From NCBI GenBank assembly GCA_963833425.1, contig CAWHXP010000003.1, positions 384,001-448,000 on the forward strand: a stretch of DNA of 64,000 nt. Direction: 5' to 3'. A model generated the notes under the pieces. That model did not search any database. It saw only the letters and a program-made list of their open reading frames with translations, and was not told the DNA's origin. This document shows positions 3,455 through 42,794 of the stretch, in pieces. Position 1 is the first letter of the stretch. Each line of letters starts with the position of its first letter. The position numbers and the translations under genes were made by a program. The DNA is from an uncultured Methanosarcinaceae archaeon (GTDB lineage: Archaea; Halobacteriota; Methanosarcinia; Methanosarcinales; Methanosarcinaceae).

Positions 3455-3480
3455 GTCTCGAATGATAATTCAGCTTTTAA

Positions 3481-15920: not shown

Positions 15921-17058
15921 AAAGGATTTCGATAAACTTCGGTTTTATTTCTTAGCAGTAATTTCTCGTATCTTCCCCTCAATTTCTCTATTTAATTCCT
16001 CTTTTTGGCTTTACTTATTCTCAATTCTTTGATTTTAAAGATAGCTTCCGCTATCTTCAATATACTTTTTTTTTATTTTCAATGTCCTTAATTGATAGAG
16101 ATTATAACAAAAAGCCGTACACAACATTTTTAGATTTACTATTTTAACAGTAGTAACAAAAACTCTTCCTGCTTTGAAAATTTCTTTCGTTACTGAATAA
16201 ACTCTTTCCCCTTGGACTCTTTTTGAGTTAATTCCCTTATTTCTTAATATATCCTTTATTCCCAACGTATGTCCTTTGACCGCTCTTTTCATTGTTGCAT
16301 TATACCCTTTCGTTTTTGCTCCAAAGTATCCTCTGTCCCTATAAACCACTTCGTTTTCCTCTGTTATATCTACATACGAATCATGTACGGACGCAGTTGT
16401 TGTTTTGAATCTTCTGATCAGCTCATAATCTCTGTCTATTATATTATGACGCTTATATCCAAAGTGAGACTTACCTCCCTCCTTTGTCCATGGTTCCATC
16501 TCTGCTTCTTCTTGTTTTTGCCTCATCTCTCTGCTTTTGCATGTCCTGGATCTGAATGGATAAAAGTAGCATCCTGAATAATTCCCTGCTTTATCTGTAA
16601 ACCCAGAGCATAAAGTTGGCTTTGCAACTTTACCCATATTTTCTTTGAAATTCTCGATAATTCTCTCCCTAAATAGCCATACAGTAGTACTGTCAGGCAT
16701 GTATTCCGGAAATCCAAGGAATTTCCTAAAAGAAATTCGATCTATACAATGTTTCTCAAGTTCAAAATCAGAGAGACCATGCCATTGTTGTAAAACAAGC
16801 ATTTTGAATATCACAATGACATCAGTTTTAGGTATCCCTCCTGAAACGGTTTTGTTGATATATATAGACTCAAGAATAATACGAAACGCTTTCCAATCAA
16901 TTCAGGAAGCAATTTCAGCAAGCTTATCTCCAACAGATTCAAGACGTTTATACTCTTCTTTAAGAGCAAAATCAGTAAGAGTTTTCATGAATATACATAA
17001 ATATTGACAAATTTAAAACCAACCATGCTCAAGAGCAGGGAGTTTATCGAAATTCTCT
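15921..17058 (-). mobile_element. IS5-family element, copy A, defective transposase
   Basis: 1138 bp with terminal IRs; FKMLVLQQWHGLSD..DRISFRKFLG, QDATFI, YRDRGY motifs; internal stop and frameshifts. Confidence 0.92.
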
Positions 17059-17736
17059 ATAGAATGTATTTTTTCTGAATCGTATCTTTATCCATTAAAT
17101 AACAATTAGACTTTCTCATCTTATTTAATTGTCTTATCAGAGCATTTGCATGTTTGATTTCATTGTCTGTTTTTTGACTAATTTTCCATCCCAATATTAC
17201 CTTTTTATTTGTGTCTACTGATATTGAAGTTCCCTGCTCTTATGGAATAGTAATAACTTGCATATAACCTCGTAAATTCTGTTGCGTCAATCACTGCAAT
17301 AGAGATATTCACTCCATATTAGTAAAACAGTTTTAGAATCCTTGACAGAAGAAGGTTAAACAGGGAGGAGGGAATTCTAGCTACAAACTTTTGAAGGGCA
17401 GTGAAATGTGGAATCTTATCTAAGAAAGTTTTTCTTTTATATCGCTCATAAGGTCAAATAGTTCTACAAAATCTCGATAGTCTGTACTAATATACTCTTT
17501 CAATAAAACCAGTACAAGAAGTTTATGCTTGGTATAAACGTGTTTTGAATACTTGCAGGAATAAAGCTTCAGTCTCGAAGACTGAACAGTTAAGGCTGGT
17601 ATGAACAAATTTAAAGTACTTTTTAAATTTCTATATAGAATGTTCCTTCGTTTTATCAGAAAAATAAGAAGAGTATTCTAACGGAACATTATAAACTATA
17701 ATGTAAAAGTTCAATTTAGAGCATTTCTACAGAGCC
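17059..17736 (-). mobile_element. 5' part of a second DDE (IS5/IS4-like) element
   Basis: End GGCTCTGTAGAAAT; frames give YSCKYSKHVYT..LKEY..DYRDFVEL, IPHFTALQKF, AVIDATEFT, CYLMDK..YDSEKIHS up to the IS5 junction. Confidence 0.8.
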
Positions 17737-18028
17737 AAGATTTGGTTTTTAGTCAGGACAACTTTTGACAAAAATGCTTATGTACATATTAATACATTAG
17801 CACACAAAAATTTGAGATATTTATAACTTAACCAAGTGTGAGATGTGAGATTCGAAGACTAATTTTAAGTCTGGCTCTTTGACCTAGCTGTACAACTCTC
17901 GCAAATTGAAGGATAGTTTTTTATTTTTTGCTTCTCTCCACTTTTTTATTTTTTTCCCAATCATTCTGGTTTACTTCAATCTATTTTTTAGTCCAATATA
18001 TTTTTTGATAACCCAACTTGGTAATTTT

Positions 18029-18646
18029 CTAAAATGGGATTTCCCATAGAGGATACCACTTTTCTATATTTTTTTCAATGGACAATTCTCTTTCCATTTC
18101 TGCTCTGAGCCTGAATTCGAAAGAGCTGTCCCTTTGCTTATCTGAGAGAGGAATAAAAGGGTAGTAATTTCCCTGCTTGAAGTTATATATCCAGTATACA
18201 GCTTTTAGTCTGTCAATTTTTTCTTCGCTATTAATAGTCAAATCCACAGATTCGCTGTCAAATCTGTAAATGGCACATAGGATCTGTTCTCCAAGTCCAC
18301 GCTCTTCGAGGGTCTGGCTTACAAGGTAGATATTTGCAACAATATTTTCAAAATCTGGATCTTTAAAAATAACCCAGAGGAAATTATATTTATCCTTTTC
18401 AATTCTGAACTCTGTCCCTTTATCCTTCGAGCTATATTCCAGAAGCTCCTGAATTTCTTTTCTAGTGGATTCGTAGGCTGAGGTATCGATGGGCTTAAAA
18501 CAGATACCTGCATATTCTGATGGTTTCAAGCCTAGATTACTTTCCAAAGTAATGCAAGCCGTGGAAATTTCAAACAGCTTTTCACTCTTTGCTTTAGGAA
18601 GCCTACTCCTCCCAAGAACTGCATCCATAAAATCCTGGAAACCCAT
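18029..18646 (-). CDS. Conserved archaeal protein downstream of htpX (PspA-associated PspAB-like)
   Basis: YWIYNFKQGNYYPFIP, RD..FEFRL, WYPLW C-terminus; adjacent to htpX. Confidence 0.75.
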   Translation of the reverse strand: MGFQDFMDAVLGRSRLPKAKSEKLFEISTACITLESNLGLKPSEYAGICFKPIDTSAYESTRKEIQELLEYSSKDKGTEFRIEKDKYNFLWVIFKDPDFENIVANIYLVSQTLEERGLGEQILCAIYRFDSESVDLTINSEEKIDRLKAVYWIYNFKQGNYYPFIPLSDKQRDSSFEFRLRAEMERELSIEKNIEKWYPLWEIPF

Positions 18647-18862
18647 TTAGCTTATCTCCTCAATTTCTGAGACTTTTAATATCTCCTAGTATCAACAAAA
18701 TATATCATTGCTTTCAATGTTAATTGATTGCGATTAATAAAAAGCTCAAAAAATAATAAAAAACCTCTGAGTCTCCTGCTTAAAAATATCTATTAAACGT
18801 ATTAGCACAACTTATCTGCTCAAATTATTTATTTTACATGTCTGCTTAACTTATACGCTTAT

Positions 18863-19744
18863 TTAATACATTTCCCTTTGCATTTGTTCAAGCTTTGCTA
18901 TCCTTTTTTCCACAGATGGATGAGTGGAAAATAGATTCATAATCGAAGAACTTGAGATTGCAGGGATGATGAAAAAGCCATTCATTCCTTCCATCTTCCT
19001 TAGATCTTCATCAGGTACCCTGTCCATGAGCCCACTTATTTTCATGAGAGCAGATGCAAGATCAGAAGGCTGTCCAGTAATAATGGCCGAGCCTCTGTCT
19101 GCAGAATATTCCCTGTAACGGGACAGAGCGCGAATCAGCAGAAAACTTATAATCCAAACTGCGATTGAGACCAGCCAGACAAGCACAAAGCTTCCCCCTT
19201 CACGCCGCCTATCTCCTCCAATGTTGAAGTAAAGGCTATAGCGGACAAAGTAAAAAGCTACTGTTGAAATAAAACTGGCAATAGTCATGACAGCCATATC
19301 TCTGTTCTTAACGTGGCTTAGCTCGTGGGCAAGTACAGCCTCAAGTTCAGCTGAAGAGAGTTTATCTAGAATTCCTGTCGTAACTGCTATAAATGCTTTA
19401 TTCGGGCTCCGACCTGTCGCGAAAGCATTTGGGACTTCGGTATTGACAATTGCAATTTGAGGTTTTGGTAAGTCAGCGAGTGCACAAAGCCTTGTTATCA
19501 TCCCATGAAGCTTTGGTGCCTCGATTTCGGAGACTACCTGCGCTCCAGTCGTCCAGAGTACCATTTTATCTGAATAAAAATATTGAACGCCCATAAAAAG
19601 ACCAATAAATATAATCATAACAATCGAAGGGGTTCCATAGTACGAAAGGAATGCAAGGAAAAATAGGTAAACTACCGCCAGAAGAAACATTGTGAAAAAC
19701 ATCCGTTCCTGTAGTCCTAAGTCTCGTTCCCACTTTCTTTTCAT
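18863..19744 (-). CDS. htpX: Zinc metalloprotease HtpX (M48)
   Basis: PNAFATG, AVLAHELSH (HEXXH), SRYREYSAD, STHP. Confidence 0.96.
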   Translation of the reverse strand: MKRKWERDLGLQERMFFTMFLLAVVYLFFLAFLSYYGTPSIVMIIFIGLFMGVQYFYSDKMVLWTTGAQVVSEIEAPKLHGMITRLCALADLPKPQIAIVNTEVPNAFATGRSPNKAFIAVTTGILDKLSSAELEAVLAHELSHVKNRDMAVMTIASFISTVAFYFVRYSLYFNIGGDRRREGGSFVLVWLVSIAVWIISFLLIRALSRYREYSADRGSAIITGQPSDLASALMKISGLMDRVPDEDLRKMEGMNGFFIIPAISSSSIMNLFSTHPSVEKRIAKLEQMQREMY

Positions 19745-19819
19745 ATGTTATTTCGCCTATCCAGATATTTAATTTATTTAATTTCAGCTTAAACAATAAT
19801 CAAGCTAGGTTAAATGATA

Positions 19820-19909
19820 ACGAATTTCAATAAATCCCTAAATTTCGTTGCATGTGGATAAATTTTATGTAATAGAACTGTAGAAATCAGAATTTTGTCG
19901 AAATCCTCA
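19820..19909. mobile_element. MITE copy
   Basis: GAATTTCAATAAATCC...GAAATCAGAATTTTGTCGAAATCCTC. Confidence 0.65.
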
Positions 19910-20109
19910 ATAATTAAGTATAGGTTAAGTTGACATATTAAATGAACTACCTATAGATTAAATGAACTACCTGTAAATTAACTAAACCTAAAACAAAACT
20001 GCAAAGATAGCTAATAAAAATTATGGTGTCGAACCCGGCAGAAAACAACTTGTATCTTTTCGCCAACTCCTTGAATATAAAGGAATTATTACGGATCAAA
20101 TATTTTCAT

Positions 20110-20710
20110 TCACTTATAAGCTCCCTTCTTCTAGTTTTCCTAACTTCCAACATAATTTTTATTACATTTGAAGTTGTACCATTACCCTTAATTCCAATAT
20201 AACTTATATAACTCTATAATTCACTAGTAGAACTGTTTTTAATTTGAGAATGATACTTAAAGATTTTTCTTGCTGGGATACGCTATATTAATCTGCATCA
20301 CTCTTGAAGGAGAATACTTTTGGTTCAGCAACAATAAAAGATGTATAATCGCCATCATCATTATTGAATTAAACTCAAAACATTACCTTTTACCAGTCTA
20401 AATGATAGATATTTCAAATAGTTTATAATATCATTGTTTTAAATAAATTTTTCCCGATACTTCATACAAAAAACATGTGATGTATTGAAGAGGATCTCAA
20501 TAGACCTCTGATTTTCACGATTAATTCGTATACAATTTATCAACAACGGAAATGGAGAAGTTTATTTAAATATTCTCTATTTTATAAATATAATTATTTT
20601 AATTACATTGTTCTTTAAGTAGGCAAACGTACTTAAAATATAAACCAGTTATTTAATAACAGTTATCGGGAACGTTTCCATATCCGCAGCAAGCTGAGGT
20701 ATTTTTGGCT
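20110..20710 (-). mobile_element. Degenerate IS200/IS605 tnpA remnant carrying a MITE
   Basis: Frames give HM.FCMKYR..CFEF..AEPK.SPSRVMQI..ARKIFK..YIG..GNGTTSNVIKNYV; end-like hairpin ATCCGCAGCAAGCTGAGGTAT near 20682. Confidence 0.65.
20489..20578. mobile_element. MITE copy inside the IS200 remnant
   Basis: AGAGGATCTCAATAGACCTCTGATTTTCACG...ATTCTCT. Confidence 0.65.
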
Positions 20711-21115
20711 GGAATAAAAATAGTCATTCGGAACTGCAACAAATTGGAAATAGTTAATCACTCAGTATAACTAAACCAAATGAAGATAGCTTTATTTTGA
20801 ACTTTGGTATGCTGTTCCAATCTTATGCACCAATAAAATTGGCCAAGTGAAATCTTTTGTTTAATGGGTTAATTTTCAGGTCTTGATGCGTGTATAAAAT
20901 TATTTATACATATATTTAATGTTCTATGCAGAAACTATAAACTGCTTCACTAAGATTGGCTATACAGATCAAGGATAAGAGCTAGGGAAAAATATGTAAT
21001 TCCCAAGTATTTCAAGGCATATTTTGATAGTTTTAATTTATTTAAGCAAAAATAGCAGCTAAGCCAAACAAATTTGCAGGTAGGCAGAGTTATTAAAAAA
21101 GTATTTATCGGCAAA

Positions 21116-21931
21116 TTAATAAAGTTTGATCGGCTCAATTCCCATTTTTTCCATCAAGCAGGCAGGGATATCAATTACTTGCGAAACTGAATCGATCACA
21201 ATTCCATCTGAAGTTGCCACGAAGAGGTCGTTTTTCGAACGTCCTTTATATTCCTTAAGTTCGAAATCAGTGGCTTTTGAAATTCGAGCATCACCTGGAA
21301 TTCCATGTTCTTCCATTTTGTAGCGAATGAAACTTGCAAGTTCCCCACTCCGACTGATTTGAGCATCCAGTAGAAAAACAACTGATTTAGGATTGGCTTC
21401 GCACAGAAATTTAATAACTAGATCCAGGGATTCCTCAAGATTTTTTACATTTTTTGCTTTACTGAAGTAACGGCGAGTATCTCTTACATAACCGTCATCA
21501 CATAACCACATCGGTTTTTTCCTAAGAAGATTATCCACTCCAAGAAGAACGTTATACCCATCTAGTAGAATATCTTTATACTTTATGTCTGTATAGGTTA
21601 CTTTTTTACTAATTCTGGGAACTATCCTGTCAGGAGATACAATAATCCTTGTAAGAATGTGCCGTTCTTCTACGTTGAGCTGAAAATGGTCAGCTACGAA
21701 ACGGATGGTAACAAACTTTGGGTAACCCAATAAAAGTATTCTTCGAATATCTCTGGCAGGTTTGAGTAATTTTTCTCTTATAGCAGAATCGTATAAATAA
21801 AAGGAACCTTCATACATATCTTTCACACATACTTGTCTCCTTTTAAAAAGGGAGTACTTTAAATGAATGAACAGATATCTAACATATACATATTTGCGCA
21901 AATAAAAATAGCAACATATGACATTCGGCAT
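21116..21931 (-). CDS. DUF434-like PIN-fold protein; true start probably ~21820-21830
   Basis: LL.GYPK...FVADHFQL, DGYNVL, CDDGYVRD, SRSGELA, ATSD. Confidence 0.8.
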   Translation of the reverse strand: MPNVICCYFYLRKYVYVRYLFIHLKYSLFKRRQVCVKDMYEGSFYLYDSAIREKLLKPARDIRRILLLGYPKFVTIRFVADHFQLNVEERHILTRIIVSPDRIVPRISKKVTYTDIKYKDILLDGYNVLLGVDNLLRKKPMWLCDDGYVRDTRRYFSKAKNVKNLEESLDLVIKFLCEANPKSVVFLLDAQISRSGELASFIRYKMEEHGIPGDARISKATDFELKEYKGRSKNDLFVATSDGIVIDSVSQVIDIPACLMEKMGIEPIKLY

Positions 21932-21975
21932 TCAATTGCCTGTGAAGTCCTTTGCTCCGGTTCTGTTCAGTTTAA

Positions 21976-22069
21976 AGAGGATTTCGACATACCTATTCAT
22001 TTTTTCACATGCTGTTCATAAATGGTCATTAAATAATTCGTGAAAATAAGTGGTTTATCGAAATTCTCT
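21976..22069. mobile_element. MITE copy ~50 bp upstream of ala
   Basis: AGAGGATTTCGACATACC...GGTTTATCGAAATTCTCT. Confidence 0.75.
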
Positions 22070-22121
22070 AGAGTTGGTTTTTAGCTGAGGTCAGTTCAGG
22101 GCTCAGGATGGGGGTTATGCT

Positions 22122-23102
22122 ATGGAAGTATTATGGCTGTCTCAGGAAGAAGTAAAAAGTGTTATAGATATGCTTTCTGTTATGCAAGTTGTGGAAAGAG
22201 CTTTCAGGCAACACGGGCTTGGTAAGGTACAGATGCCTCCCAAATCCTATATTTACTATACTGCTTATAACGGGGATCTGCGCACAATGCCTGCATATCT
22301 TGAAGAAGAGAATATCACTGGCGTGAAAATTGTAAATGTTCATCCCGAAAATCCAACTCTTGGGATTCCCACCGTAATGGCGTTAATAGTCCTTATTTCT
22401 GCGGAAACAGGTGCCCCTATGGCAGTTATGGACGGAACATGGCTGACAGATGTCAGAACCGGAGCAGCAGGGGGAATTGCGGCGAAATATCTGGCAAGAA
22501 GGAATTCAAAAATTATAGGGCTGATTGGGGCTGGAAATCAGGCAAGGACCCAACTTGAAGCTCTTTGTGAAGTATTTGACCCTGAACTAGTGAAAATAAC
22601 TTCCAGAACGAAAAAAAGCTGTGAACAATTTATCCGAGACATGGCAGGCACTCAGCCTTCAGAAATTCGCTACGAAGAAAAAATAGAAAATGTATGCGAT
22701 TGTGATATTTTGGTGACAACAACTACAACCCGCAAACCGATCGTGAAAGCCCAATGGATTAAAGAAGGTACTCATATAAATGCAATTGGAGCCGATGCAG
22801 TGGGAAAAGAAGAACTCGATCCCGAACTTATTATCCACTCCAAGATAATTGTAGATGATATGGTCCAGGCGCTTCATTCGGGTGAAGTAAATGTTCCTCT
22901 TTCGAAGCACTACATTTCTGAAAATGATATCCATGCTCAGCTCGGTGAAATAATAGTAGGTCTGAAACCTGGTCGGGTCAATGAAGAGGAGATTACAATC
23001 TTCGATTCAACAGGTCTTGCCATTCAGGACGTTGCAGCTGCACATCTGGTTTATGAGAGGGCTGTCAGTAAAGGGATCGGAAGTCAAGTACACATGTTCT
23101 AA
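22122..23102 (+). CDS. ala: Archaeal alanine dehydrogenase (ornithine cyclodeaminase/mu-crystallin family)
   Basis: QMPPK, GDLRTMPAY, KIVNVHP, RTGAAG, GAGNQA, FDSTGLAIQD. Confidence 0.9.
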   Translation: MEVLWLSQEEVKSVIDMLSVMQVVERAFRQHGLGKVQMPPKSYIYYTAYNGDLRTMPAYLEEENITGVKIVNVHPENPTLGIPTVMALIVLISAETGAPMAVMDGTWLTDVRTGAAGGIAAKYLARRNSKIIGLIGAGNQARTQLEALCEVFDPELVKITSRTKKSCEQFIRDMAGTQPSEIRYEEKIENVCDCDILVTTTTTRKPIVKAQWIKEGTHINAIGADAVGKEELDPELIIHSKIIVDDMVQALHSGEVNVPLSKHYISENDIHAQLGEIIVGLKPGRVNEEEITIFDSTGLAIQDVAAAHLVYERAVSKGIGSQVHMF

Positions 23103-23785
23103 AGATATATGTTCTCACTAAACTTCAGTCCCCTTTATTCCTTGTTAATTTCCTCAACTAATAACTATATAGCAGCTTATAAGAATATAATTTGATTAGT
23201 ATAAATAATCTTCAAAGTAAAAATTGGCACTTAATAAATTTAGAATAATAAATTTAATTTCAAGTGCATAAATTTCTCCGCTGATCACAAAATGATTATT
23301 TCAATAAATTTCACTTGACATAAAGACGCCTTCGTATCCCATTATATGTGACGAAAAATGTCCATATTTCCTTTATATTTGAGAACTGCACTCAACTGAA
23401 GACTAAGTAGCTTTTTTATCCATTTTTTCTCTTTTGAGAACAAATTCCCAAGTACATTCTTCGTATTCTATGGGTGTTAGATTCCAATTAAATTTTGATC
23501 AATGAGAAAGAATTTTTTGATGTTAATTGCAGCTTTAATATCTCTATGATGTTTTCTGTTGAGGCAAATTGTAAACTAATAAAAAAGTCATTCATAACTA
23601 TACAACAAACTGGAACTACTTAGGAGATACGAGATTATTTATATCAGGCTGGCATTTAGCAGGCAAAAAGGTTATCCTATCTTTTTATTCAATGCAAATT
23701 TATTCGAATATACAATTCATCAATACTTTGTATATATCATAAATATCACATATTCTACACATATTACATATTTGAGAGGTAAATT

Positions 23786-24964
23786 ATGTTTCAGATAGGA
23801 GAAGCATTAATGGGGCAGGGCTCAGAGCTTGCCCATGTTGATTTAATGATAGGAGATAAGGTTGGTCCTGTGGGACAGGCTTTTGCAAACGGCCTGACTC
23901 AACTTTCGGCCGGACATACTCCACTTCTGTCCGTCATCAGGCCGAACCTACCACCCAAACCTTCCACCCTTATAATTCCAAAGGTCACGGTAAAGAATAT
24001 GGAGCAGGCAGCAAAGATTTTCGGACCTGCCCAGTCAGCAGTTGCAAAGGCAGTAGCAGACTCTGTCGAAGAAGGCGTAATCTTGAAGGAACAAGTTGAA
24101 AACGTTGTTATCGTAGCAAGCGTCTTCATTCACCCAGAAGCTCGAGACTATAACAAAATTTACAGATATAACTATGGAGCTACAAAACTCGCAATTAAAC
24201 GTGCTATGGAAGGCTTCCCGGATATTGACAGAGTTCTCGAGGAGAGTAATAAGTCCACTCATGCCATTATGGGATTCAAAGTCGTTAGGCTCTGGGACCC
24301 GCCCTATTTACAGATCGCTTTTGATAACCCTAACTTGGAAGCTGCACTTTCTGCGATTTCCCAGATTCCTAACAGCGATCATGTGATCATCGAAGCGGGT
24401 ACGCCTCTTATAAAACGCTATGGTGTTGATATAATCTCAAAAATTAGGCAAGTAAGACCCGATGCTTTCATTGTCGCTGACTTAAAAACCCTTGATACCG
24501 GAAACCTTGAAGCAAGGATGGTAGCAGATGCTGCAGGTGACGCCATTGTAGTCTCTGCTCTTGCTCCAATCAACACTATTGACAAGCTCATCGAAGAAGC
24601 CCATAAAACAGGTATTTATGCAGTCATGGACACCCTCAACCAGCATGATCCAATTTCTGTCCTAAAAAATCTTAAGATTATGCCTGATGTCATTGAACTC
24701 CATCGTGGAATTGACATTGAAAGTACTGAACATGCCTGGGGAGATATTGCTGAGATTAAGAAGGTTGCTCAAAAAGCTTTAATTGCCGTTGCTGGGGGAG
24801 TCCGTCTTGACAAGGTACCTGTGGCTCTAAATCAGGGTGCTGACATTCTTGTTGTCGGACGTGCAATCACCAATGCAAAAGATGTTAGGGAAGTTGCAGA
24901 GCAGTTTATCAACAGCCTTAATAAGCCTGAAATTGACCAGTTCAGAATTATGACGGACTTTTGA
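23786..24964 (+). CDS. fae-hps: Bifunctional formaldehyde-activating enzyme / 3-hexulose-6-phosphate synthase
   Basis: IGEAL..ELAHVDL, GPAQSAVAKAV (Fae); EAGTPLIK, ADLKTLDTG, VVGRAI (Hps). Confidence 0.96.
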   Translation: MFQIGEALMGQGSELAHVDLMIGDKVGPVGQAFANGLTQLSAGHTPLLSVIRPNLPPKPSTLIIPKVTVKNMEQAAKIFGPAQSAVAKAVADSVEEGVILKEQVENVVIVASVFIHPEARDYNKIYRYNYGATKLAIKRAMEGFPDIDRVLEESNKSTHAIMGFKVVRLWDPPYLQIAFDNPNLEAALSAISQIPNSDHVIIEAGTPLIKRYGVDIISKIRQVRPDAFIVADLKTLDTGNLEARMVADAAGDAIVVSALAPINTIDKLIEEAHKTGIYAVMDTLNQHDPISVLKNLKIMPDVIELHRGIDIESTEHAWGDIAEIKKVAQKALIAVAGGVRLDKVPVALNQGADILVVGRAITNAKDVREVAEQFINSLNKPEIDQFRIMTDF

Positions 24965-25097
24965 GATGATTTTAAATTCCGTAAAAAGCTGCTAAAAAAG
25001 TAAAATATAACACAACTATTAGTAGAAAACTATAAGAGAAAGCGAGAATTTTAATGCTTTCTTTCCATTTTCTATTCGTTTTTCAGGAGGAGATTTT

Positions 25098-25766
25098 TTG
25101 GGTTTACCATTCATTTTACTGAATTTCAAGACTTATATACAGGGCACGGGTCAGAATGCTGTGGAAATTGCAAAGGCCTGTAAAATAGTATCTGAAGAAT
25201 CTGGTATCCAAATTGCGGTGGCTCCCCAGCTTCCGGACATTTACAGAGTAGCCTCGGAAGTTGAACTTCAAGTATTTTCTCAACACATGGATGGAATAGG
25301 AGAAGGAAGCTTTACTGGACATATTTTTGGGAAATGCATAAAAGACGCAGGAGCCTTTGGGACTCTTATAAATCATTCTGAAAGGCGTCTTACCCTTGCA
25401 GATATTGAAGCTTCTCTGAGGGCAGCAAGAGACTTTGGACTAAGAACAGTTATCTGTACTAATAATATCCCTACCACAGTAGCAGCAGCAGCCCTTGGTC
25501 CTGATTATGTTGCACTAGAGCCCCCAGAGTTAATAAGTAGTGGAATCTCAGTCTCTAGGGCCGATCCTGAAGTCGTTAGTGGCTCGGTTGAAGCAGTTGC
25601 AAAAATCAATCCTGAAGTAAAAGTACTTTGTGGAGCCGGAATCTCAAAAGGTGAAGATCTCAGAGCGGCTCTAGATCTTGGATCTGAAGGTGTGCTCTTG
25701 GCATCAGGAATCGTTAAAACAAAAGACCCAAAAATTGCACTTGAAGATCTTATTAGTTTAGTATAA
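25098..25766 (+). CDS. tpiA: Triosephosphate isomerase (archaeal)
   Basis: NFKTY, NHSERR, EPPELI, CGAGI, GVLLASG. Confidence 0.96.
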   Translation: MGLPFILLNFKTYIQGTGQNAVEIAKACKIVSEESGIQIAVAPQLPDIYRVASEVELQVFSQHMDGIGEGSFTGHIFGKCIKDAGAFGTLINHSERRLTLADIEASLRAARDFGLRTVICTNNIPTTVAAAALGPDYVALEPPELISSGISVSRADPEVVSGSVEAVAKINPEVKVLCGAGISKGEDLRAALDLGSEGVLLASGIVKTKDPKIALEDLISLV

Positions 25767-26249
25767 GTTTCACTTTCTATATTTTATTCAAAAAAGTATG
25801 GATGTTATGAAATATATAGACCTATTTAAAAATAATTGGACTTGTCAGCCATTTTTATTTTAATATTCTACGATTATTCCGATATATAATCCAAATTTTT
25901 GACGTTTTTTCAAGTTATCACAAGTCTTTAATTGTAAATTCATTCAACTTGGCAAACATAATTCATCGCCAATGATTAAAGAAAATAAGCTCAAAAAACT
26001 TGCCCGCTATATCTTGAATCCGACATTTTGAAGATATGTACGTGTATAAAAAATTAGTTTATTATTTCTGCTAATTAAATTACCAATTTATTGGGCAGTG
26101 AAATTGTACAAAAAACCAATTTAACATCCCTAGCACAGTAATATTTGACTCTTCTATGGCACTTGCTGATTACTTTTTAGACAGGTTTGGAAAATAAAAC
26201 TTGGGATAAAATTCTTGCCCACAATAATGATGAGTCAATTTAAATTGGT

Positions 26250-29181: not shown

Positions 29182-29342
29182 GAAACCAAGACCTTAAAAC
29201 GTAAGATATTTTATTATTTACTGGGTTTCTGGCTTTTTACAGTCGCAGAATTTGGGAGATTAAAATGATTTTTCGCGATCCTAGAAAATGAAAAAAAGGT
29301 CTCCAATATGTTGAAAAATTAAATGGAGAAATGTATCTATAA

Positions 29343-30899: not shown

Positions 30900-30956
30900 A
30901 CCTCGTTCATTTAAGTTTTAAAAACATCCCGTAGATTTTTTCAAATTATTTGCTCT

Positions 30957-33935: not shown

Positions 33936-34042
33936 TTTTCTTCTCTCGGATTCTTTTTATCTCAGTTGAATCATTTAACTGTTCATTTGGGTATTGCATC
34001 ATAATTTCGATGTATCAAAGGATCTGCAGATACATAGACTAT

Positions 34043-34136
34043 AGAGGATTTAGATTAAACCTCAGGTTTTTACGAGTTGTGTTATACATTATTCATCAAG
34101 CATATGACGAAATTTAGGGATTTGTCGAAATTCTCT
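34043..34136. mobile_element. MITE copy upstream of uvrA
   Basis: AGAGGATTTTAGATTAAACC...GATTTGTCGAAATTCTCT, flanked by AT/AT. Confidence 0.75.
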
Positions 34137-34749
34137 ATGAACAAGCAGTTTGAAAGTTTTTGCTTGTTCTTTGGACAATGCGTCAGTGGAAGATAACTTC
34201 ACGCATTTACTATTTTATATATAAATGGATATCATTGATTGAAATTAATTTCATTGATGACAGCTAGTAACAATTAGATGAAGTTCCTAAATATTAAGTC
34301 CCCAGATTTTCCAACATATACAACAAATGTGGGCTTTATATTAATAAAGTGATATAGCGAATTGAAAGTAATAATCATTAAATGAATGGATCCTATAATA
34401 AAATAGAGCAGATTAAGCTTACTGATAACAAATATAGCAGCCCTATTGTATCAAATTGTATATATGCTAATCCTCAACACTTTCATTTTAGAACAACTAT
34501 TCCCCTTACAAATTAGCATTTCTAAGCTTTTAGAGCCAAAAAAAATATGGTTAAAAAATATGTGGAGAAAGAAAATGTCGACAGATTGCGAGAAGAGTGG
34601 AGTTTAAAGCTTCAGCCATATAACGAGTTGTAAAGTATATTTATCATATAAATAATTATCGACTTAAATATGTTTTAGTGTTTTTGTATGCAATAAATAA
34701 TAAAATGCTGTAAAGTAATTTTTCATATGCTCGCTGAAATTATATTAAG

Positions 34750-35640
34750 AGAAGAAAAAAATCTGGAAAAGATGTAAAAAAAGATGAGCAACATGCATGA
34801 CTTTCTGTAAAATCTGCTCGATACCTCCAATCTTTTTCTTTTGAGTTCTTTGTGAGTCAATTCCATTAAATTTGTTTTTCTTATTTCTGTCAAGCAATAA
34901 TCCAAAAACTGTAGATAGTCCGCTACATATACTGGAAGTTTTTAATTTATACATCTGATCTTTTATCACTCCGTAATACTGAGGACTTATCATTTCATGC
35001 AGTTTCTTGCAATATATCGATGTGTCTTTTAAATTTCTCAACAACTTTTCTCCTTTTTGACAACTTCTTGAGAATTATCTCATCAGTGTAAATGACAAAT
35101 GTGTACCTTGAGTCAAGAAAGGATTCTCATATTTCTTTCTGCACTCCTGTGTTTTTACCCAAAGATTAACTTGATGCATCTCAAAAATTTTCCATTCAGA
35201 TCATCGAAAAAAATATCCCAAAAGCAAAGAGCCTTCAATTTCTGAAAATCTTATCTCCAATGATCCACGATAATCATCATCCTTTATTCCAGCAACTACA
35301 CAGAGAATAGTGTTTTAATAGTAAGCCGTATCAGTACTTCGAAATAAGTAGCATCTATAAGCGAGTAAGGGATTTTTGTTTCTATTCTTTTTGAGAGGAA
35401 TTCTTCAAACTTTTGATCAAATTCTTTAGTAATCCTGGAAACAGAAGAAGATGATATAGCACCGAACTTCTAAAATATTTATGATCTTTTCTATCCTTCG
35501 AGGTAAAGACACTTTGCAGATCAGATTCAGCTACAGCAATTCGATGAATTTCCAAGATCTTGAATATCGGAATAATAATGATTATATTTGAGAACATATG
35601 ATTGTACAAGATTTACTTAATCTAATCCACTAACATAACT
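34750..35640 (-). mobile_element. Degenerate IS256-family transposase
   Basis: Frames give SSSVSRITKEFDQKFEEF, IPYSLIDATYFEV, VVAGIKDDDYR, ICHLH. Confidence 0.7.
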
Positions 35641-35902
35641 TTCCTATGTCATGTAACTTTCCTATTTCAGTTCGACCAGTAGATAACCGAGTCCAGAAAA
35701 TTAGAAAAACAAATCGGAAAAATTTTGTTAACAAAAAGTGGAGGTTATTTCCTCTCACGACTTTTCCAATTTTCGATAGTTAACTCTGAATAAAGAAGCT
35801 GAATTGCACTTTCTGATTTGTGAAAATTAGATTCAAACAAGATTTTCTCATCTGCGTCTCCAAAAAAGTATTCAACACAAAATCTTAAAGAAAATAAATA
35901 TG

Positions 35903-35992
35903 AAAAGATTTTGATAAAACTCTGATTTTCACAAGTCATATTATATGCAATTTATAAGTCTATGACAAAATAAAGAAATTTATCGAAATTTT
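35903..35992. mobile_element. MITE copy (degenerate)
   Basis: GATTTTGATAAAACTCTGATTTTCACAAG...ATTTATCGAAATTTTC. Confidence 0.65.
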
Positions 35993-36252
35993 CAGAATTA
36001 TAACTAAAGAGAAAAGATGATATAAATTAATGCATGAATTGAATAGGATATTGAGAGATCATAAGATCATCTACAAATATTATTCTCATTTATAACCATA
36101 AAATATATAGGGGAAAAATTATAGGAAAAAAATCCCTAAAGAAATGCTCTAAAAAGTTTTTAGCCTTTCAGAGCAGTCTATTAAATCTGCAAAAACCTGG
36201 AGTGATGAGGAAAGTAATCTTCTTTTGTTACAAACAAAATTTTTCTGCCAGC

Positions 36253-36767
36253 TCAGATTCGAGTACGTCTTAATATCATCCCCAATCTGGCTTTCAGTTC
36301 CAGGGAGTTAAATGGAGGAGTAATATAATCATCTGCTCCTGCCTCAAAAGCTTTAACTTTGTCTGTCACCTCACATCTTTCACTAAGCATTACTACCGGT
36401 ATCCACCAGTACCTAGAATTGGCCTTAAGCTGCCTGCATATCTCAAAACCGTCTATATTCCCAAGTCCAGTATCTAGACAGGACAAGGTCAGGTTTTTCG
36501 GTTCTTACGGTTTCAAGGAGCAGAAGAATTACCAGGAGCTTTGACAACATTATAATTTTCAGCTTCAAGCAACGGTTTCAGGCTATCATAGACATTATGT
36601 CCATAATTAACAATAAGGATTTTTTCCCTTGTATCCTTAAAGTCTTCAATGCGCATTTTTACCAGTTCTTCAGCAACCGAAAGCTCACAGGCAATATCCC
36701 TATCACTTATTTCAGGCTTTGCTTCAATCAATTTTAATATTTTATTATCTAGCTTTATGTCGTACAT
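36253..36767 (-). pseudogene. HTH plus response-regulator receiver protein, frameshifted
   Basis: N-terminal AsnC-like HTH (ISDRDIACELSV), then KPDLVL/LDT..IDGFEICRQLK..PVVMLS..GADDYIT.PF across two frame breaks at ~36480-36520. Confidence 0.8.
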
Positions 36768-37002
36768 TTACCCTCCGCCTCTATACAGTATACATTTTAT
36801 TAGGTATTAAACATTTCTAAAATATTTAGCTTTAACTAATATAGTAACTTATATATAGTATAGATGGAACAGAGTTCTCCAATTTTTTTCATGAATAGTC
36901 TGCCTTAATCAATAGGCAGATAAGTTTATAACCCTAAATAGCAAGTTAATATTGGAAATAAAAATCACTCACGAAGAGTAGCCACCTCTGAGATGATAAA
37001 CA

Positions 37003-37284
37003 ATGGATCCACTAGAGAAAATCTTCGGAAAAACTGCACAGATGACAGTACTTGAAAACCTGATAGAACACCAGAATGAATCGACCTACCTTTCTGGAAT
37101 AGCTGAAGAAACCGGACTGTCACATTCGAGCGTATCAAGGGTTATCACACCGTTGATTGGGTCAGGGATTGTCATAGAAAAACCACTGGGAAAGCAAATA
37201 AGAACTTTCCAGCTAAACATGGAAAACGAGGCAACGAAGTTAATAATAGATTTTTACAATAAAATAAATCAGATGTTAGAGTGA
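37003..37284 (+). CDS. Winged-helix DNA-binding protein
   Basis: YLSGIAEETGLSHSSVSRVITPLIGSGIV. Confidence 0.85.
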   Translation: MDPLEKIFGKTAQMTVLENLIEHQNESTYLSGIAEETGLSHSSVSRVITPLIGSGIVIEKPLGKQIRTFQLNMENEATKLIIDFYNKINQMLE

Positions 37285-37396
37285 GCTTGAAAAATAAGAA
37301 GCTCGAAAAAGAAAAATTTAGGAATAGGACAGAACAAGACTTTCTGTCCCTTCTTTCTAGGCTTTACATAAGTGATTGAAATATAAAACAATCCAA

Positions 37397-38348
37397 TTAA
37401 GAGGGTTCCGAAGATTTATCATGAAGCCTGTTTTTTCGGCCTTCTATGTACTCATTTGCAGCGGTCGCTGCTAGTGCACCATCCCTAACTGCTGCCACAA
37501 CCTGCCAAATCAGCGTGTCACGACAGTCCCCAGCTGCATAAATGCCTTTAACTGATGTCTCAAGCGAATTGTTAGTTTGGATAAAGCCTTCTCCATCCTT
37601 GTCCACATTAAAAATTTCAGTATTAGGATGGATGCCAATAGATATAAAAACACCATCTATAGCCAATTCGTGGATTTCTCCATTTTTTAGATCTTTAAAA
37701 ATTATTTTTGCTACCTTTCGAATTTCTCCGCCGCTTCCTACAATTTCCATAACAGAAGCATTTAGAATGAATTTGATATTCGAAGTTACTGAAGCCCGAT
37801 CCTGAAGGATTTTTGCAGCTCTAAATTTATCTCTTTTGTGTAGGAGATAGACCTGCCGGGCAATTTTTGAAAGGAAAAGTGCCTCCGTAATTGCCGAGTT
37901 ACCACCGCCGATCACTACGACGGTTTTGTTTCGAAAAAAAGGTCCATCACAGATAGCGCAGTAGGAAACTCCTCTACTTATAAGTTCTTCTTCTCCTGGA
38001 ACATTAATTTTCTTTGGGTTTGCACCTGTGGCAATTATAACAGTTCTTGATTCAAAAATTCCGATGCCCGTGTAAATTATTTTCTTTGCCCCTTCATAAT
38101 GAACTGAGACGACTTCTGCTATCTTTGTCTGTACTCCTGCTTCTTGGGCATGGTTTTTGTATTTATCCATTAATTCAAGTCCTGAGATAGATTGGAAACC
38201 AGGATAATTTTCCACTATATCTGCAAGTGCTATTTGGCCACTAATTTCACTCCTTTCAAGAATAAGGGTTTCAAGGCCCGATGCGTACTGCATAAATTCC
38301 AGCTGTGAGCCCTGCAGGCCCCCCTCCTATGATTATCAGGTCGTACAT
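37397..38348 (-). pseudogene. trxB: Thioredoxin-disulfide reductase with a 5' frameshift near 38283
   Basis: MYDLIIIGGGPAGLTAGIYAVR in another frame from ATG 38348 (RBS GAGGT); CAICD, GGGNSA, YAAGD. Confidence 0.9.
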
Positions 38349-38404
38349 GCTACCTCACAAGTCCAAAAAAATTGTTCCAGAAAAGTCCAAAATGAGTTAA
38401 TAAA

Positions 38405-38647
38405 TTAGCTAATGCTAGCAATAGCGTCGGCTTTTTTAGGAAGACCTGTAAAAGCTACCTTCCCATCAATGATGGTTGTAGGCACGCCAGCTATCCCATA
38501 TTTATCTATCAATACCTGGCCCTGCGGAGTTTCCACATCGACTTCCTCATACTCAAAATCATAGTCTGATTTCAGATCTTTCCAAAATTTGCGAGCTGAT
38601 GGACAGATAGTGCACCAGCTGGCGTGAATAAGTGTAACTTTAGCCAT
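38405..38647 (-). CDS. Thioredoxin/glutaredoxin-like redox protein
   Basis: WCTICP, GVPT; upstream of trxB. Confidence 0.9.
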   Translation of the reverse strand: MAKVTLIHASWCTICPSARKFWKDLKSDYDFEYEEVDVETPQGQVLIDKYGIAGVPTTIIDGKVAFTGLPKKADAIASIS

Positions 38648-39408
38648 GATAAAAGCACCTCTAGACAAAAACACCTCTAAAAACTGCGATGATCTTTACT
38701 ATATTTAGAATTTCTGATTTATTGCATTCGATTACCAGTTTTATTAGGATAAATTTTTATGATTTTAGAATATATTAAAAAGCCTCAAAAATGTTCGCAA
38801 AATCATTGTACTAATCAATTTACAGATATAAATAAGTTAAGCATCAGTCGCACTTCTATTTGCTGTAGTTTAAATGGCTACTATCATTTGGTTACAATTT
38901 TCCCCTAATAGTTCACAAGAAAAAACTTTATCCGTAAATCTTAATTCCATTTTATTGTAATCCCTCTAGAAAATTCAATACTGTAGAGTTCTAAAATAGA
39001 AATTATTTGTGAGCCTTGGCTAGGCTATTTTGTGCTTTTTTTCCCAAGTATTTACCGAAATATTCTTTAAATTAAGGTTAGATTGAAAAAATAAATCACA
39101 TTCTTGTTTACAAATGTGAAAACTAGGCTGGATAAATAAACATCATATGCTTAAATGTTTTTTATTTGCTTTATTTCAGAATTATTTTTGTGTTCTAATT
39201 TATTTGTAAGCGATATCAAACTTTGTTTTTTAACTTTAGATAAACATATCACGAAGCAAAAAATATATCTAATTTTGAATTTCGGTTCATCTTGCAGGTT
39301 TTTAGATTGAAGCCTTAAAATGAACATTATTAATTTCAATAGATAATATTGTAACCGGAAATAATTATATTTATAAGTGGGTGAGTAATAAAAGGCAGGA
39401 GAAAATAA

Positions 39409-40047
39409 TTGATAGCTGAAAAACTCGGATTTTTAATATATACATTCACAACCATCCTTGTTGTTGTCAGCCCCATCAGTGGAGTTGTAACTTTCATCTC
39501 CCTGACATGTGAGATGACAAATGAGGAAAAAAATGAAATTGCAAAAAAGTCCGTCACACTTGCATGTTTGATTGCCCTTTTTTTTGCTATTACAGGGGAC
39601 ATAATGCTCAATCTGTTCAGCATCAGTGTGGATTCACTGCGAGTTGCAGGAGGAATCCTTCTATTCAGCATTTCTTTTGATATGATGCATGCAAAGATCT
39701 CACGAGAGAGTATTACTGAAGAAGAGATTTCTCAATCCCAGGAACGTGACGATATATGGATATTTCCGATAGGTCTTCCGCTCCTGACTGGGCCAGGAAC
39801 GATCAGTACAGTGATTGTCCTAATGGGAGGAGCACAAAATATTGAGCAAAAAATAATGATCATTGCATCGATCATATTGGCGTTTGTCGTATGTATTTGC
39901 ATTTTCCTATTCTCAAGGAGTATTCATAAGTTGATTGGGTATAACGGAATATTGGTTTTGACCCGGCTCATGGGACTTTTGCTTGCAGCTCTTGCTGTAC
40001 ACCTAACTGTTACCGGAATCATAAATATTTTTAAGTTAACAGTTTGA
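39409..40047 (+). CDS. MarC-family membrane protein
   Basis: AGGILLF, FPIGLPLLTGPGTI, TRLMGLLLAALAV. Confidence 0.92.
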   Translation: MIAEKLGFLIYTFTTILVVVSPISGVVTFISLTCEMTNEEKNEIAKKSVTLACLIALFFAITGDIMLNLFSISVDSLRVAGGILLFSISFDMMHAKISRESITEEEISQSQERDDIWIFPIGLPLLTGPGTISTVIVLMGGAQNIEQKIMIIASIILAFVVCICIFLFSRSIHKLIGYNGILVLTRLMGLLLAALAVHLTVTGIINIFKLTV

Positions 40048-40964
40048 GACAGTCATATGGATAAATGTAAGTTATGAAACAATAACCAAAAAACAGACGT
40101 GGAGTAGAAAGCAAGCTTTCAGAACTTTCGGTACACTATCTGATTTAATATTAATTCATCAATAAAATAATTGAAATATCTGCAGTTACCATCTTTAGGA
40201 AAAAATTTTCAGCTATGAGCTGCACAATAATTATATTACTTTTTTGTGTCCTTCAAATCGTGGCAATTTTACAGTCAGTGAGATTAAAATTAGTTTGAAT
40301 ATTTTTTTGTTCAAATAAATATAACGTACTTGAGTCGGCTTATTCCCACCAATATATATGTCATATCATATTTTAAAGACAAACAATCTCGAGAAAAATA
40401 TTTATAAAATAGTTAAGCTAATACCACTTTACAGAAAAGATAAATAAAATTTCCGAAGTAAATAAGATACTATCGATGCGTGCAACATAAACAGTAGTTC
40501 TCAAACCAATTCATGATGAGGTCTGATTGCCACCATAGTTAATTTGTTTAAAGCTCGCATCCATACCACGTGTTCCATCGTATTGCAATAAGCATTAGTT
40601 GGATTCCATGTTACAAGATATACTATTTTTGTTTCAATTTCTCCGCCTTTGATAACTTCTATATCCTGATAGCCCAACGAACTATCAAATGTTATTTAAT
40701 TGTACCCACACTTAAGCCCAACAGCAATCAAATTCCAACCGCTTGGTTTGTTGTTATATTTTGATCACCTTCATTTTTGAAATATTAAGTTCCAACTACA
40801 TATTCGCAATCTTGGGGAAAAGTCTTATATTTTTCAATATTAGATGCCAGATCCAACTCCATATCATAATAACAAGCATTGTCAGCCTGGAGATTAGAAG
40901 ATATCTTCCTAATCCAATAATGTTTATTTTAGTTCCAAACAAATCAACACTCATGGATACTCGG

Positions 40965-41170
40965 AGAGAAAAGAGCTCCGATGATCTAATTTTATAGAAA
41001 CTAACTCCCAAGAAGCTGCTCTAGATTGGGCTAACTTGCGGAAGCTAACCCTATGGAGGCAAACCTTGAGAAGTGACCTTAGAGAAAATAATTCATTAGG
41101 GCAGCAGTTTCTAGAGTATCAAAGAAATTTTTAGAAGCTAACGTAGACAACAATCTTGAGAGAAGCTAGG
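40965..41170 (+). pseudogene. Pentapeptide-repeat protein remnant
   Basis: Broken A(N/D)Lxx units: TNSQE AALDW ANL, ANPME ANLEK. Confidence 0.5.
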
Positions 41171-41175
41171 CCCAT

Positions 41176-41266
41176 AGATTATTTCGATAAATTCCTTAAT
41201 TTCGTCTTATGCTTATAAATGGTGTACATGTGACTCGTGAAAATCAGAGGATTTTTTGAATCCTCT
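41176..41266. mobile_element. MITE copy
   Basis: AGATTATTTCGATAAATTCC...CAGAGGATTTTTTGAATCCTCT. Confidence 0.7.
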
Positions 41267-41358
41267 TTAACTATATTTTTGAACAATATCTTTGAAATAG
41301 TGTATCTTTTTATGTGTAGTTTTTTATTTTATTGTGCAGGAAATAGAGTATTTATTAA

Positions 41359-42496
41359 AGAGAATTTCGATAAACTCCATGCTCTTGAGCATGGTTGACT
41401 TTAAATTTGTTAATATTTATGTATATTCATGAAAACTCTTACTGATTTTGCTCTTAAAGAAGAGTATAAACGTCTTGAATCTGTTGGAGATCAGCTTGCT
41501 GAAATTGCTTCCTGAATTGATTGGAAAAAGTTTCGTATTATTCTTGAGTCTATGTCTATTAACAAAACCGTTTCAAGAGGGAGACCTGAAACTGATGTCA
41601 TTGTGATGTTCAAAATGCTTGTTTTACAACAATGGCATGGTCTCTCTGATTTTGAACTTGAGAAACAGTGTATAGATCGAATTTCTTTTAGGAAATTCCT
41701 TGGATTTCCGGAATACGTACCTGACAGTACTACTGTATGGCTATTTAGGGAAAGAATTATCGAGAATTTCAAAGAAAATATGGGGAAAGTTGCAAAGCCA
41801 ACTTGCTGCTCTGGGTTTACAGATAAAGCAGGGAATGATTCAGGATGCTACTTTTATCCATTCAGATCCAGGACATGCAAAAGCAGAGAGATGAGGCAAA
41901 AACAAGAAGAAGCAGAGATGGAACATGGACAAAGAAGGGAGGGAAATCTCACTTTGGATATAAGCGTCATAATATAATAGACCAAGATTATGAACTGATC
42001 AGAAGATTCAAAACAACAACTGCGTCAGTACATGATTCGTATGTAGATTTGACAGAGGAAAATGAAGTGGTTTATAGGGACAGAGGATACTTTGGAGCAA
42101 AAACGAAAGGGTATAATGCAACAATGAAAAGAGCAGTCAAAGGACATATGTTGGGAATAAAGGATATATTAAGAAATAAGAGAATTAACTCAAAAAGAGT
42201 CCAAGGGGAAAGAGTTTATTCAGTAACGAAAGAAATTTTCAAAGCAGGAAGAGTTTTTGTTACTACTGTTAAAATAGTAAATCTAAAAATGTTGTGTACG
42301 GCTTTTTGTTATAATCTCTATCAATTAAGGACATTGAAAATAAAAAAAAAGTATATTGAAGATAGCGGAAGCTATCTTTAAAATCAAAGAATTGAGAATA
42401 AGTAAAGCCAAAAAGAGGAATTAAATAGAGAAATTGAGGGGAAGATACGAGAAATTACTGCTAAGAAATAAAATCCGAAGTTTATCGAAATCCTCT
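41359..42496 (+). mobile_element. IS5-family element, copy B, defective transposase
   Basis: 1138 bp, AGAGAATTTCGATAAACT...AGTTTATCGAAATCCTCT; inverted near-copy of 15921-17058. Confidence 0.92.
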
Positions 42497-42792
42497 ATAA
42501 TTAGAGAAGAAATCAAAGCAGATTCAATTAACTTGTAAGAGAGAGAAAAAGGAAGAAAATAAGGGGAAAATATAGAAAGCAATTGAACCTGATCTTTGAC
42601 AAAATTAAATCTAAACAAAGAAATATTGTGGAGACAATATTTTCTATAGTTAAAAGAAAATTAGGAGAAACACTTAGGACAAGGACATTCCGTTATCAAG
42701 TAAAAGAGATTAAAATTAAATTAATAATACACAACATAAACAAAAAAAGTAATAGAAATAATTTGCATAAAGTTAAGAATTTCTACAGAGCC
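42497..42792 (+). mobile_element. 3' part of the second DDE element
   Basis: IIREEIKADS..QRNIVETIFSIVKRKLGE..QVKEIKIKLI; ends ATTTCTACAGAGCC, the inverse of the end at 17736. Confidence 0.8.
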
Positions 42793-42794
42793 GA

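Follow-up and report, generated by a model that had tools for sequence, protein, structure and literature searches.

A probable 24.3-kb inversion between two opposite IS5-family copies in a Methanosarcinaceae archaeon, marked by a second insertion sequence split across the breakpoints

The stretch of DNA analysed here (the window; 64,000 nucleotides of contig CAWHXP010000003.1, from an uncultured Methanosarcinaceae archaeon) carries two copies, A and B, of a 1136-bp IS5-family element that face each other across some 24 kb of genes, and beside each copy lies one piece of a different IS5-family element of about 1 kb, hereafter the second element. The features are as follows, in window coordinates:

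10414..15921, plus strand: left outer flank, made up of duplicated TPR-gene modules; in relatives these are not the ancestral neighbour of window positions 1-10313
15922..17057, minus strand: copy A, IS5-family, 1136 bp, with its IRR end at 15922 and its IRL end at 17057; transposase frame broken
15943..16234, minus strand: copy A share of a private 292-bp tract (element positions 823-1114), 100% identical to copy B
17058..41359, no strand: inferred inverted segment of 24,302 bp between copies A and B
17058..17735, minus strand: 5' piece of the second element, 678 bp, whose TATA end (17058-17061) adjoins the IRL end of copy A; frameshifted
18005..23562, plus strand: block P, with the PspAB, htpX-like, DUF434/DUF5616 and OCD/mu-crystallin genes
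18029-18646, minus strand: PspAB (block P)
18863-19744, minus strand: htpX-like M48 peptidase (block P)
21116-21931, minus strand: DUF434/DUF5616 (block P)
22122-23102, plus strand: OCD/mu-crystallin family (ala-DH/OCD; block P)
23565..40092, plus strand: block F, with fae-hps, tpiA, uvrB, uvrC, uvrA (three ORFs), a trxB-like gene and MarC
41360..42495, plus strand: copy B, IS5-family, 1136 bp, with its IRL end at 41360 and its IRR end at 42495; transposase ORFs 41552-41977 and 41845-42381
42182..42473, plus strand: copy B share of the private 292-bp tract; inferred crossover or gene-conversion scar
42496..42794, plus strand: 3' piece of the second element, 299 bp, whose TATA start (42496-42499) adjoins the IRR end of copy B
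42795..43170, plus strand: C-terminal part of a Cdc6/Orc1-like (pseudo)gene, truncated by the 3' end of the second element

Copies A and B are 96.7% identical and inverted relative to each other; a repeat search of the window returns the pair as 15943-17061 and 41356-42473, 96-98% complementary. Their bounds were set from the terminal inverted repeats (GAGRATTTCGATAAAC) together with 53 full-length genomic copies. The two opposite IS5 copies of the original prediction are indeed present, with each end lying 1 bp further in and a length of 1136 rather than 1138 bp. The element ends in GAGAATTTCGATAAAC and GAGGATTTCGATAAAC and duplicates 4 bp of a TA-rich target, about C|TWWA|R; the duplication is perfect in 27 of the 53 full copies, and TATA is the flank of 19. 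Pfam DUF772 and DDE_Tnp_1 are both found on the ORF fragments of A and B, including the copy A ORF at 16035-16814, and the best NCBIfam match of these fragments is NF033581 (IS5_4), with scores (115 bits for the copy A fragment, 61 and 83) that stay under the cutoff of 140 bits owing to the broken frames. A and B directly follow one another among the copies of this element on the contig; the segment 17058-41359 contains no further one.

The second element is present elsewhere in the genome as intact copies of about 1002 bp with the inverted repeat GGCTCTGTAGAAAT at both ends and an 8-bp target duplication; of 25 intact copies, 10 have it perfect and a further 6 nearly so (counted by hand). One such copy (C13:165328-166327) scores 215 bits with NF033579 (IS5_2), whose cutoff is 140, and 69.6 bits with Pfam DDE_Tnp_1. 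The sequences that had been quoted beside the two IS copies are there as given, and both window pieces finish in ATTTCTACAGAGCC. When aligned with intact copies, the two pieces occupy common TATA columns and map head to tail, overlapping by 4 bp (TATA), in about 25 of them, for example at C3:276877-277585 and C3:276880-276584; the predicted abutment of the halves therefore holds. Two of the intact copies have ...YDSEKIHSIIREEIKADS... across the split site. The duplicated sequence is the 4-bp TATA, and not the 2-bp AT first proposed. The restored element, predicted at about 970 bp with matching ends, comes to 973 bp and does have such ends; it is shorter than the intact form and, with several frame breaks, already a pseudogene.

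Partner halves for the window pieces are found nowhere else in the 21 contigs of the assembly. Among the 53 full copies of the 1136-bp IS, the only one with second-element sequence on its IRL side alone is A, and the only one with it on its IRR side alone is B. That the orphan halves sit exclusively on these two ends, of copies that are consecutive and inverted, is exactly what a single crossover predicts. One junction is restored perfectly by un-inverting the segment, with respect to both the continuity of the host element and its TATA duplication.

A second line of evidence comes from the sequence of the copies themselves. Of the 38 alignment columns at which A and B differ, 36 fall in element positions 20-822 and two at positions 1115 and 1136, leaving none in positions 823-1114. 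In this interval A and B each have at least 11 differences from every one of the other 51 full copies, and only one of 1275 other copy pairs is identical there; a BLAST search of the tract against the genome gives 96 matches, of which A and B reach 100% and the runner-up 96.2%. In the first 822 bp, many of the variants that separate A from B also occur in other genomic copies, and positions 1-600 of B are nearest to another copy (C3:332686-333818, 8 differences). The 292-bp tract private to A and B reads as a recombination scar.

From these observations we infer the following order of events. The 1136-bp IS would have inserted in the second element at TATA, duplicating 4 bp, and a further, oppositely oriented copy would have lain at a distance of about 24 kb. 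The two copies would then have undergone homologous recombination and inverted everything in between, with a crossover located in or beside element positions 823-1114 and a conversion tract that made the copies identical there. Such a flip would have left the two halves of the host element where they now lie, the 5' one beside the IRL end of copy A, within the segment and on the minus strand, and the 3' one beside the IRR end of copy B, outside the segment and on the plus strand. The flip breaks no gene, since the breakpoints fall within IS sequence and it is the 3' ends of genes (PspAB and MarC) that point towards them. An inversion of 17058-41359 by recombination between A and B is thus, on sequence evidence, probably real; as 292 bp of perfect homology remain, it is plausible that the pair could still flip.

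The reciprocal junction, between positions 15921 and 41359, is less telling. The imperfect 2-bp flanks (AT/TT) noted there at first are imperfect also under the corrected bounds, which give 4 bp: TAAA on the IRL side of B and TATA on the IRR side of A, a match of 3 out of 4 and no perfect duplication. In the present state copy A has TATA on both sides; flank tests are weak either way because TATA flanks 19 of the 53 copies. The resemblance claimed between TATTTCCTGCACAAT and the sequence following module copy 1 is a local match over 24 of 31 columns that does not exceed chance (p = 0.104, 500 shuffles), and BLAST of the module downstream of 12429 against the reverse of 41160-41359 finds no match. 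In relatives, small dispersed repeats are the sole matches to region 40048-41359. BLAST, shuffle-tested alignment and the relatives together yield no independent sign that 15921 and 41359 ever adjoined one another.

Synteny was searched in 59 genomes of the genus, five of which (G055, G056, G059, G038 and G037) are close, with 84-91% DNA identity; over the blocks shared with the closest relatives the identity is 87-91%. Neither the inverted nor the un-inverted junctions are found in these five, and neither junction can be confirmed by synteny because all five are rearranged around every block. Block F is a single collinear block in four of them, while the fifth shows only its right end (G037 C145; window 34832-40092), and block P stands next to block F in none. 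In four of four relatives examined (G055, G038, G056 and G059), block P adjoins the reverse of G000:C3:451715-471654, its low end facing the low end of that region, and both P and F are opposite in sign to the left outer block in G055. Un-inverting 17058-41359 restores the block orientations seen in those relatives. The proposed synteny check agrees with the un-inverted state in orientation only; the junctions themselves are absent from all five. A larger single inversion, C3:402005-451714, would restore the adjacency of block P and C3:451715; it was set aside as there is no repeat at its far end (C3:449700-451714) and the split halves would go unexplained. The IS crossover of the original prediction is supported by the exact abutment, the private 292-bp tract and the orientation in relatives; its second-junction argument falls away, and the outer flanks of the split element are non-cognate.

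These outer flanks, CAAATCTT and GAAGTTCA, match at 3 of 8 positions, so the 8-bp duplication is absent, and partner ends with a matching duplication are found nowhere in the assembly apart from one weak look-alike at C3:264940. More than one rearrangement must therefore have taken place here; likewise, the N-terminal counterpart of the Cdc6/Orc1-like fragment lies on another contig (C2:300089-302015), which calls for at least one further rearrangement. The crossover between A and B would be the most recent among several IS-linked rearrangements in the region.

The non-cognate flanks also lend some weight to a multi-step history, in which the halves derive from two nested elements, or from one nest split by exchanges, and the 24.3-kb segment never simply flipped. 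Two independent nests are possible because the TATA site of the second element carries the 1136-bp IS at four loci, the others being on C7, C11 and C2; at C2:372581-374056 the IS lies in the opposite orientation and the partner half is absent. The one intact nest, with second-element flank on both sides (C7:311132-313268), differs from the window halves by 10.5-11.9% in its host-element parts; the two nests are therefore not recent copies of each other. Compared with each of the five close relatives, the region is a patchwork, and the perfect duplication missing from 26 of the 53 full copies suggests many past exchanges. A test for a one-copy origin of the halves by congruence of distance vectors has no power (same-copy rho 0.61 versus different-copy 0.57), the window halves giving 0.05. 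Against a multi-step history stand the lack of partner halves in the 21 contigs, the private tract that links A directly to B, and the position of the orphans on consecutive, inverted copies, unlikely by chance among at least 53; we regard it as unlikely.

An assembly artefact, in which inverted repeats were traversed wrongly and the true chromosome is un-inverted, is more improbable still. Repeat-to-repeat inversion is a classic assembly mis-join, the assembly consists of 21 contigs at 80% estimated completeness, the nearest relatives are metagenome-assembled genomes, and, compared with four relatives, uvrA has three 1-bp insertions, compatible with an unpolished long-read assembly. However, contigs of hundreds of kb cross dozens of 1.1-kb IS copies, which implies reads longer than the repeat, and the 38 differences between A and B make reads assignable to one copy or the other; an artefact would also leave the private tract unexplained, though the tract is compatible with the un-inverted order as well. 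Intramolecular replicative transposition, with the nested copy attacking a TWWA target 24 kb away to produce the inversion and the second copy in one step, predicts the topology observed and fits far-junction flanks that are both of TWWA type (TAAA and TATA, 3/4 match), but we give it hardly any credence, as its copies should start identical whereas A and B have 36 differences in 822 bp, many common to other copies, the first 600 positions of B are nearest to a copy outside the pair, and IS5-family elements are, to our knowledge, not known for transposition of the cointegrate type.

The preferred reading, recombination between A and B, belongs to an ordinary type of rearrangement in an IS-crowded, peat-type Methanosarcina genome; the mechanism is a textbook one and nothing is mechanistically new. 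Chromosomal inversions that arise when inverted IS copies recombine by homology are widely described in bacteria and archaea (for example PMC2246112, PMC9366434 and PMC8369957). The present case resembles them in having homologous, opposite IS copies at the breakpoints, exchanged target duplications and no gene lost, and is unlike them in that the event is marked by another IS which the first one splits, that a conversion tract is visible in the copies, and that a sister genome of opposite orientation is not at hand. In Thermococcales, frequent inversions (chromosome flipping) are outlined as scrambling closely related archaeal genomes (PMC5495485); the Methanosarcina relatives considered here are similarly scrambled, with the distinction that the breakpoints hold 1.1-kb homologous IS copies and that the conversion tract points to homologous recombination. 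The locus shares with IS26-type events the final topology, an inverted segment between inverted IS copies. Intramolecular replicative transposition of the IS26 type, which gives inversions, predicts that the copies are identical and that the target duplication is in reverse complement, whereas A and B differ by 3.3% and are mosaic.

Nested IS insertions serve as relative-age markers. Here too the order of events follows from one IS lying within another, which also gives a unique junction; the nest differs from the usual case in being split across 24 kb and in that the same site is used at four loci, in both orientations. Such use of one site suggests a target hot spot. It would be a bolder and doubtful step to propose both that the 1136-bp IS has a genuine sequence-specific hot spot in the transposase gene of another IS and so repeatedly disables that element, and that A and B flip a 24-kb housekeeping segment to and fro in peat populations. 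The locus offers a clean worked case in which nested IS and conversion tracts date and orient a rearrangement without a sister genome. IS expansion has heavily scrambled this Methanosarcina lineage, one element alone having over 50 copies, half of them without matching flanks, and this is of practical value as a warning for synteny-based annotation and assembly of such genomes.

Metagenome contigs, which hold at most 0.21 of the sampled words, include none that bridges the IS over 15300-19800 and have no bearing on either orientation; a scan with a 39-nt flank pattern gave 0 matches and has no bearing on other strains. One peat-metagenome contig of 2177 nt, about 96% identical, runs from block P through to 30 nt of the second element end. 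As it carries the same junction, the joint between block P and the second element is not peculiar to this assembly.

The repeat scan finds a single long inverted pair in the window, 15943-17061 against 41356-42473 (96-98% complementarity), which corresponds to two oppositely oriented IS5-family elements, copies A and B, whose length of 1136 bp was set by reading the element ends and comparing the 53 full-length copies within the genome. Their terminal inverted repeats are GAGAATTTCGATAAAC on the left (IRL) and GAGGATTTCGATAAAC on the right (IRR); A and B are 96.7% identical, DUF772 and DDE_Tnp_1 are encoded in their broken ORFs, and the best NCBIfam match of these is an IS5-family model, below its cutoff. 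Each copy abuts one piece of a second IS5-family element. A homologous crossover between A and B has probably flipped the 24.3 kb between them (17058-41359), an inversion that would be marked by the split nested element and by a conversion scar.

Features at the ends of the putatively inverted segment
15922-17057, minus strand: copy A, IRL at 17057
17058-17735, minus strand: 678-bp piece of the second element, abutting the IRL end of copy A
41360-42495, plus strand: copy B
42496-42794, plus strand: 299-bp piece of the second element, abutting the IRR end of copy B
42795-43170, and contig C2:300089-302015: parts of a Cdc6/Orc1-like gene split between two contigs

Intact copies of the second element are about 1002 bp long, with inverted repeats GGCTCTGTAGAAAT; one of them reaches 215 bits with NF033579, an IS5-family model (cutoff 140). 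On about 25 such copies the two window pieces fall head to tail and overlap by 4 bp; the TATA columns are common to these pieces and to the two parts of an intact nest on contig C7, where the 1136-bp element sits inside the second one (alignment A1). Across the site, two of three translated intact copies (C8, C13) read ...YDSEKIHSIIREEIKADS... and the third (C3:276584) ...SDSEKIHPIIREEIKANS.... The original prediction had recognized this split element, and its anatomy stands; each boundary moves inward by 1 bp, the junction carries a duplication of 4 bp (TATA) instead of 2 bp, and the rejoined element, thought to be restored in frame, is a 973-bp pseudogene already frameshifted. In this assembly, orphan halves in the A/B orientation are carried only by A and B.

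The second trace lies within the copies themselves. In the 53-copy alignment, 38 columns distinguish A from B, 36 of them in positions 20-822, none in 823-1114 and two at 1115 and 1136. Over positions 823-1114 A equals B, yet each has at least 11 differences from all 51 other copies; a typical pair has 14 differences here and only 1 of the 1275 other pairs is identical. Searched by BLAST against the whole genome, this 292-bp tract gives 96 matches; A and B reach 100%, and no other match exceeds 96.2%. Such a private tract would be expected from gene conversion next to a crossover. A and B are consecutive 1136-bp copies along contig C3, of which the window spans 384001-448000, and the 292 bp of perfect homology that they share would provide a substrate for possible further flipping.

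A multi-step history, or independent nests at the two ends, is an unlikely alternative to this single crossover, set against the private tract and the unique pair of orphan halves; what speaks for it is that an identical TATA site in the transposase gene of the second element holds the 1136-bp element at four loci, in both orientations.

Insertions at the TATA site of the second element
Window 17058 and 42496: split halves, copies A and B
C7:311132-313268, same orientation: intact nest
C11:11868-12884, same orientation: deletion derivatives
C2:372581-374056, opposite orientation: partner half missing on the far side

The host parts of the C7 nest and the window halves are 10.5-11.9% different. 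The genome holds 33,885 TATA sites, but the 16-nt site occurs in it as an exact copy only 11 times. These insertions look like independent events, one element repeatedly disabling another at an apparent target hot spot. At least one further rearrangement has touched the second element, as its 3' half interrupts the Cdc6/Orc1-like (pseudo)gene at ...MNF|KDFILPLYDTY while the N-terminal part of that gene and its upstream DNA lie on C2 and do not adjoin the 5' half. The outer flanks of the split copy, CAAATCTT and GAAGTTCA, match at 3 of 8 positions; the 8-bp duplication of this element is perfect in 10 of 25 intact copies and near-perfect in 6 more. The Cdc6/Orc1-like gene is frameshifted also in three relatives (G037 C265, G055 C4, G038 C19).

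Once the boundaries are corrected, TATA stands at three of the four flanks of A and B: at both flanks of A and at one of B, whose other flank is TAAA. After un-inversion one pair of flanks is perfect, as the host element dictates, and the other is TAAA/TATA; the flank duplications thus cannot decide the question. A resemblance between module-adjacent sequences, formerly read as support at the second junction, amounts to a 24/31-column match that about 10% of 500 shuffles equal or exceed (p = 0.104) and for which BLAST returns nothing.

Among 58 other genomes of the genus, five are close relatives (G055, G056, G059, G038 and G037; 84-91% DNA identity across the compared blocks). Block F (23565-40092, fae-hps to MarC) is one block in the first four, and a 9-kb contig of G037 (C145) has only its right end (34832-40092). 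Block P (18005-23562, PspAB to OCD) is located elsewhere than block F in the close relatives; in all four examined, its low end faces that of the DNA equivalent to C3:451715-471654, with small repeats over about 1 kb in between; the counterpart here begins 3.7 kb past the right end of the window. That DNA adjoins PspAB, reversed, in these four genomes; here it lies 49.7 kb from PspAB, inverted relative to it, with sharp homology boundaries at C3:451715 and C3:402005. The signed order on G055 contig C1 is F(-), left outer block(+), P(-), C3:451715 block(+), the left outer block being the DNA left of copy A; the present order is left outer(+), P(+), F(+), C3:451715 block(+). With 17058-41359 un-inverted, the order becomes left outer(+), F(-), P(-), C3:451715 block(+), with the signs of G055 and P facing as in all four relatives. 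These orientations would agree weakly with the inversion, since the blocks are not adjacent in the relatives, the left outer block has a different neighbour of its own and P is still about 26 kb away from the C3:451715 block. Inverting the larger stretch C3:402005-451714 in one step would bring these two back together directly, but no repeat is present at the right end of that stretch, and the split halves would lack an explanation.

Small multi-copy MITE-like repeats occur at the P/F junction (23354-23561) and between MarC and copy B (40136-40880 and 41173-41280, the last present about 80 times in the genome). Duplicated TPR-gene modules, with repeats of a 102-bp period, and PKD/beta-propeller repeat ORFs of very large size (1891 aa) occupy 10414-15921, 43711-49386 and 61537-62913; in the relatives, TPR genes flank block F on both sides, pointing outward, and in G056 and G059 the C2-type Cdc6/Orc1-like part lies downstream of block F and a TPR gene.

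That the arrangement is a mis-join of the assembly seems quite improbable. A 2177-nt contig from a peat metagenome (identity about 96%) covers the transition from block P to the second element and reaches 30 nt into the end of the latter, so that this junction exists outside the present assembly; none of the metagenome contigs compared bridges an IS copy. Contigs of hundreds of kb pass through dozens of 1.1-kb copies, from which we infer a long-read assembly. Its estimated completeness is only 80%, and uvrA (30957-33935) lies in three ORFs owing to three 1-bp insertions (~32754, 33219 and 33238), absent in all four relatives aligned, which are either real frameshifts or assembly errors, and are compatible with residual long-read errors.

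Positions 1-600 of B are nearest to C3:332686-333818 (8 differences), which is not so for A; the two are thus mosaics, not sisters, and intramolecular replicative transposition as the source of the pair is the least probable reading. IS-mediated inversion by crossover is a well-known mechanism; the literature searched yields no description of this locus, a search insufficient to call it unpublished.

The 1136-bp element targets approximately C|TWWA|R, with TATA the commonest flank (19/53 copies), and its 4-bp duplication is perfect in 27 of 53 copies. As the 26 others lack a perfect duplication, widespread exchange between copies is suggested, a picture that fits the scrambled synteny with the relatives; the inversion is thus set in a genome where half of the copies have lost matching flanks. 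The transposase lies in two frames in all four copies examined (window 41552-42381, C3:332686, C8:385868 and C5:125262), ORF1 ending near element position 615 and ORF2 starting near 635, which would reflect either a frameshift common to these copies or a programmed one. Derivatives that have lost positions ~550-1046 (C11:12037-12676, C11:52435-53064, C13:227123-227824 and C13:162370-163064) are possibly non-autonomous elements.
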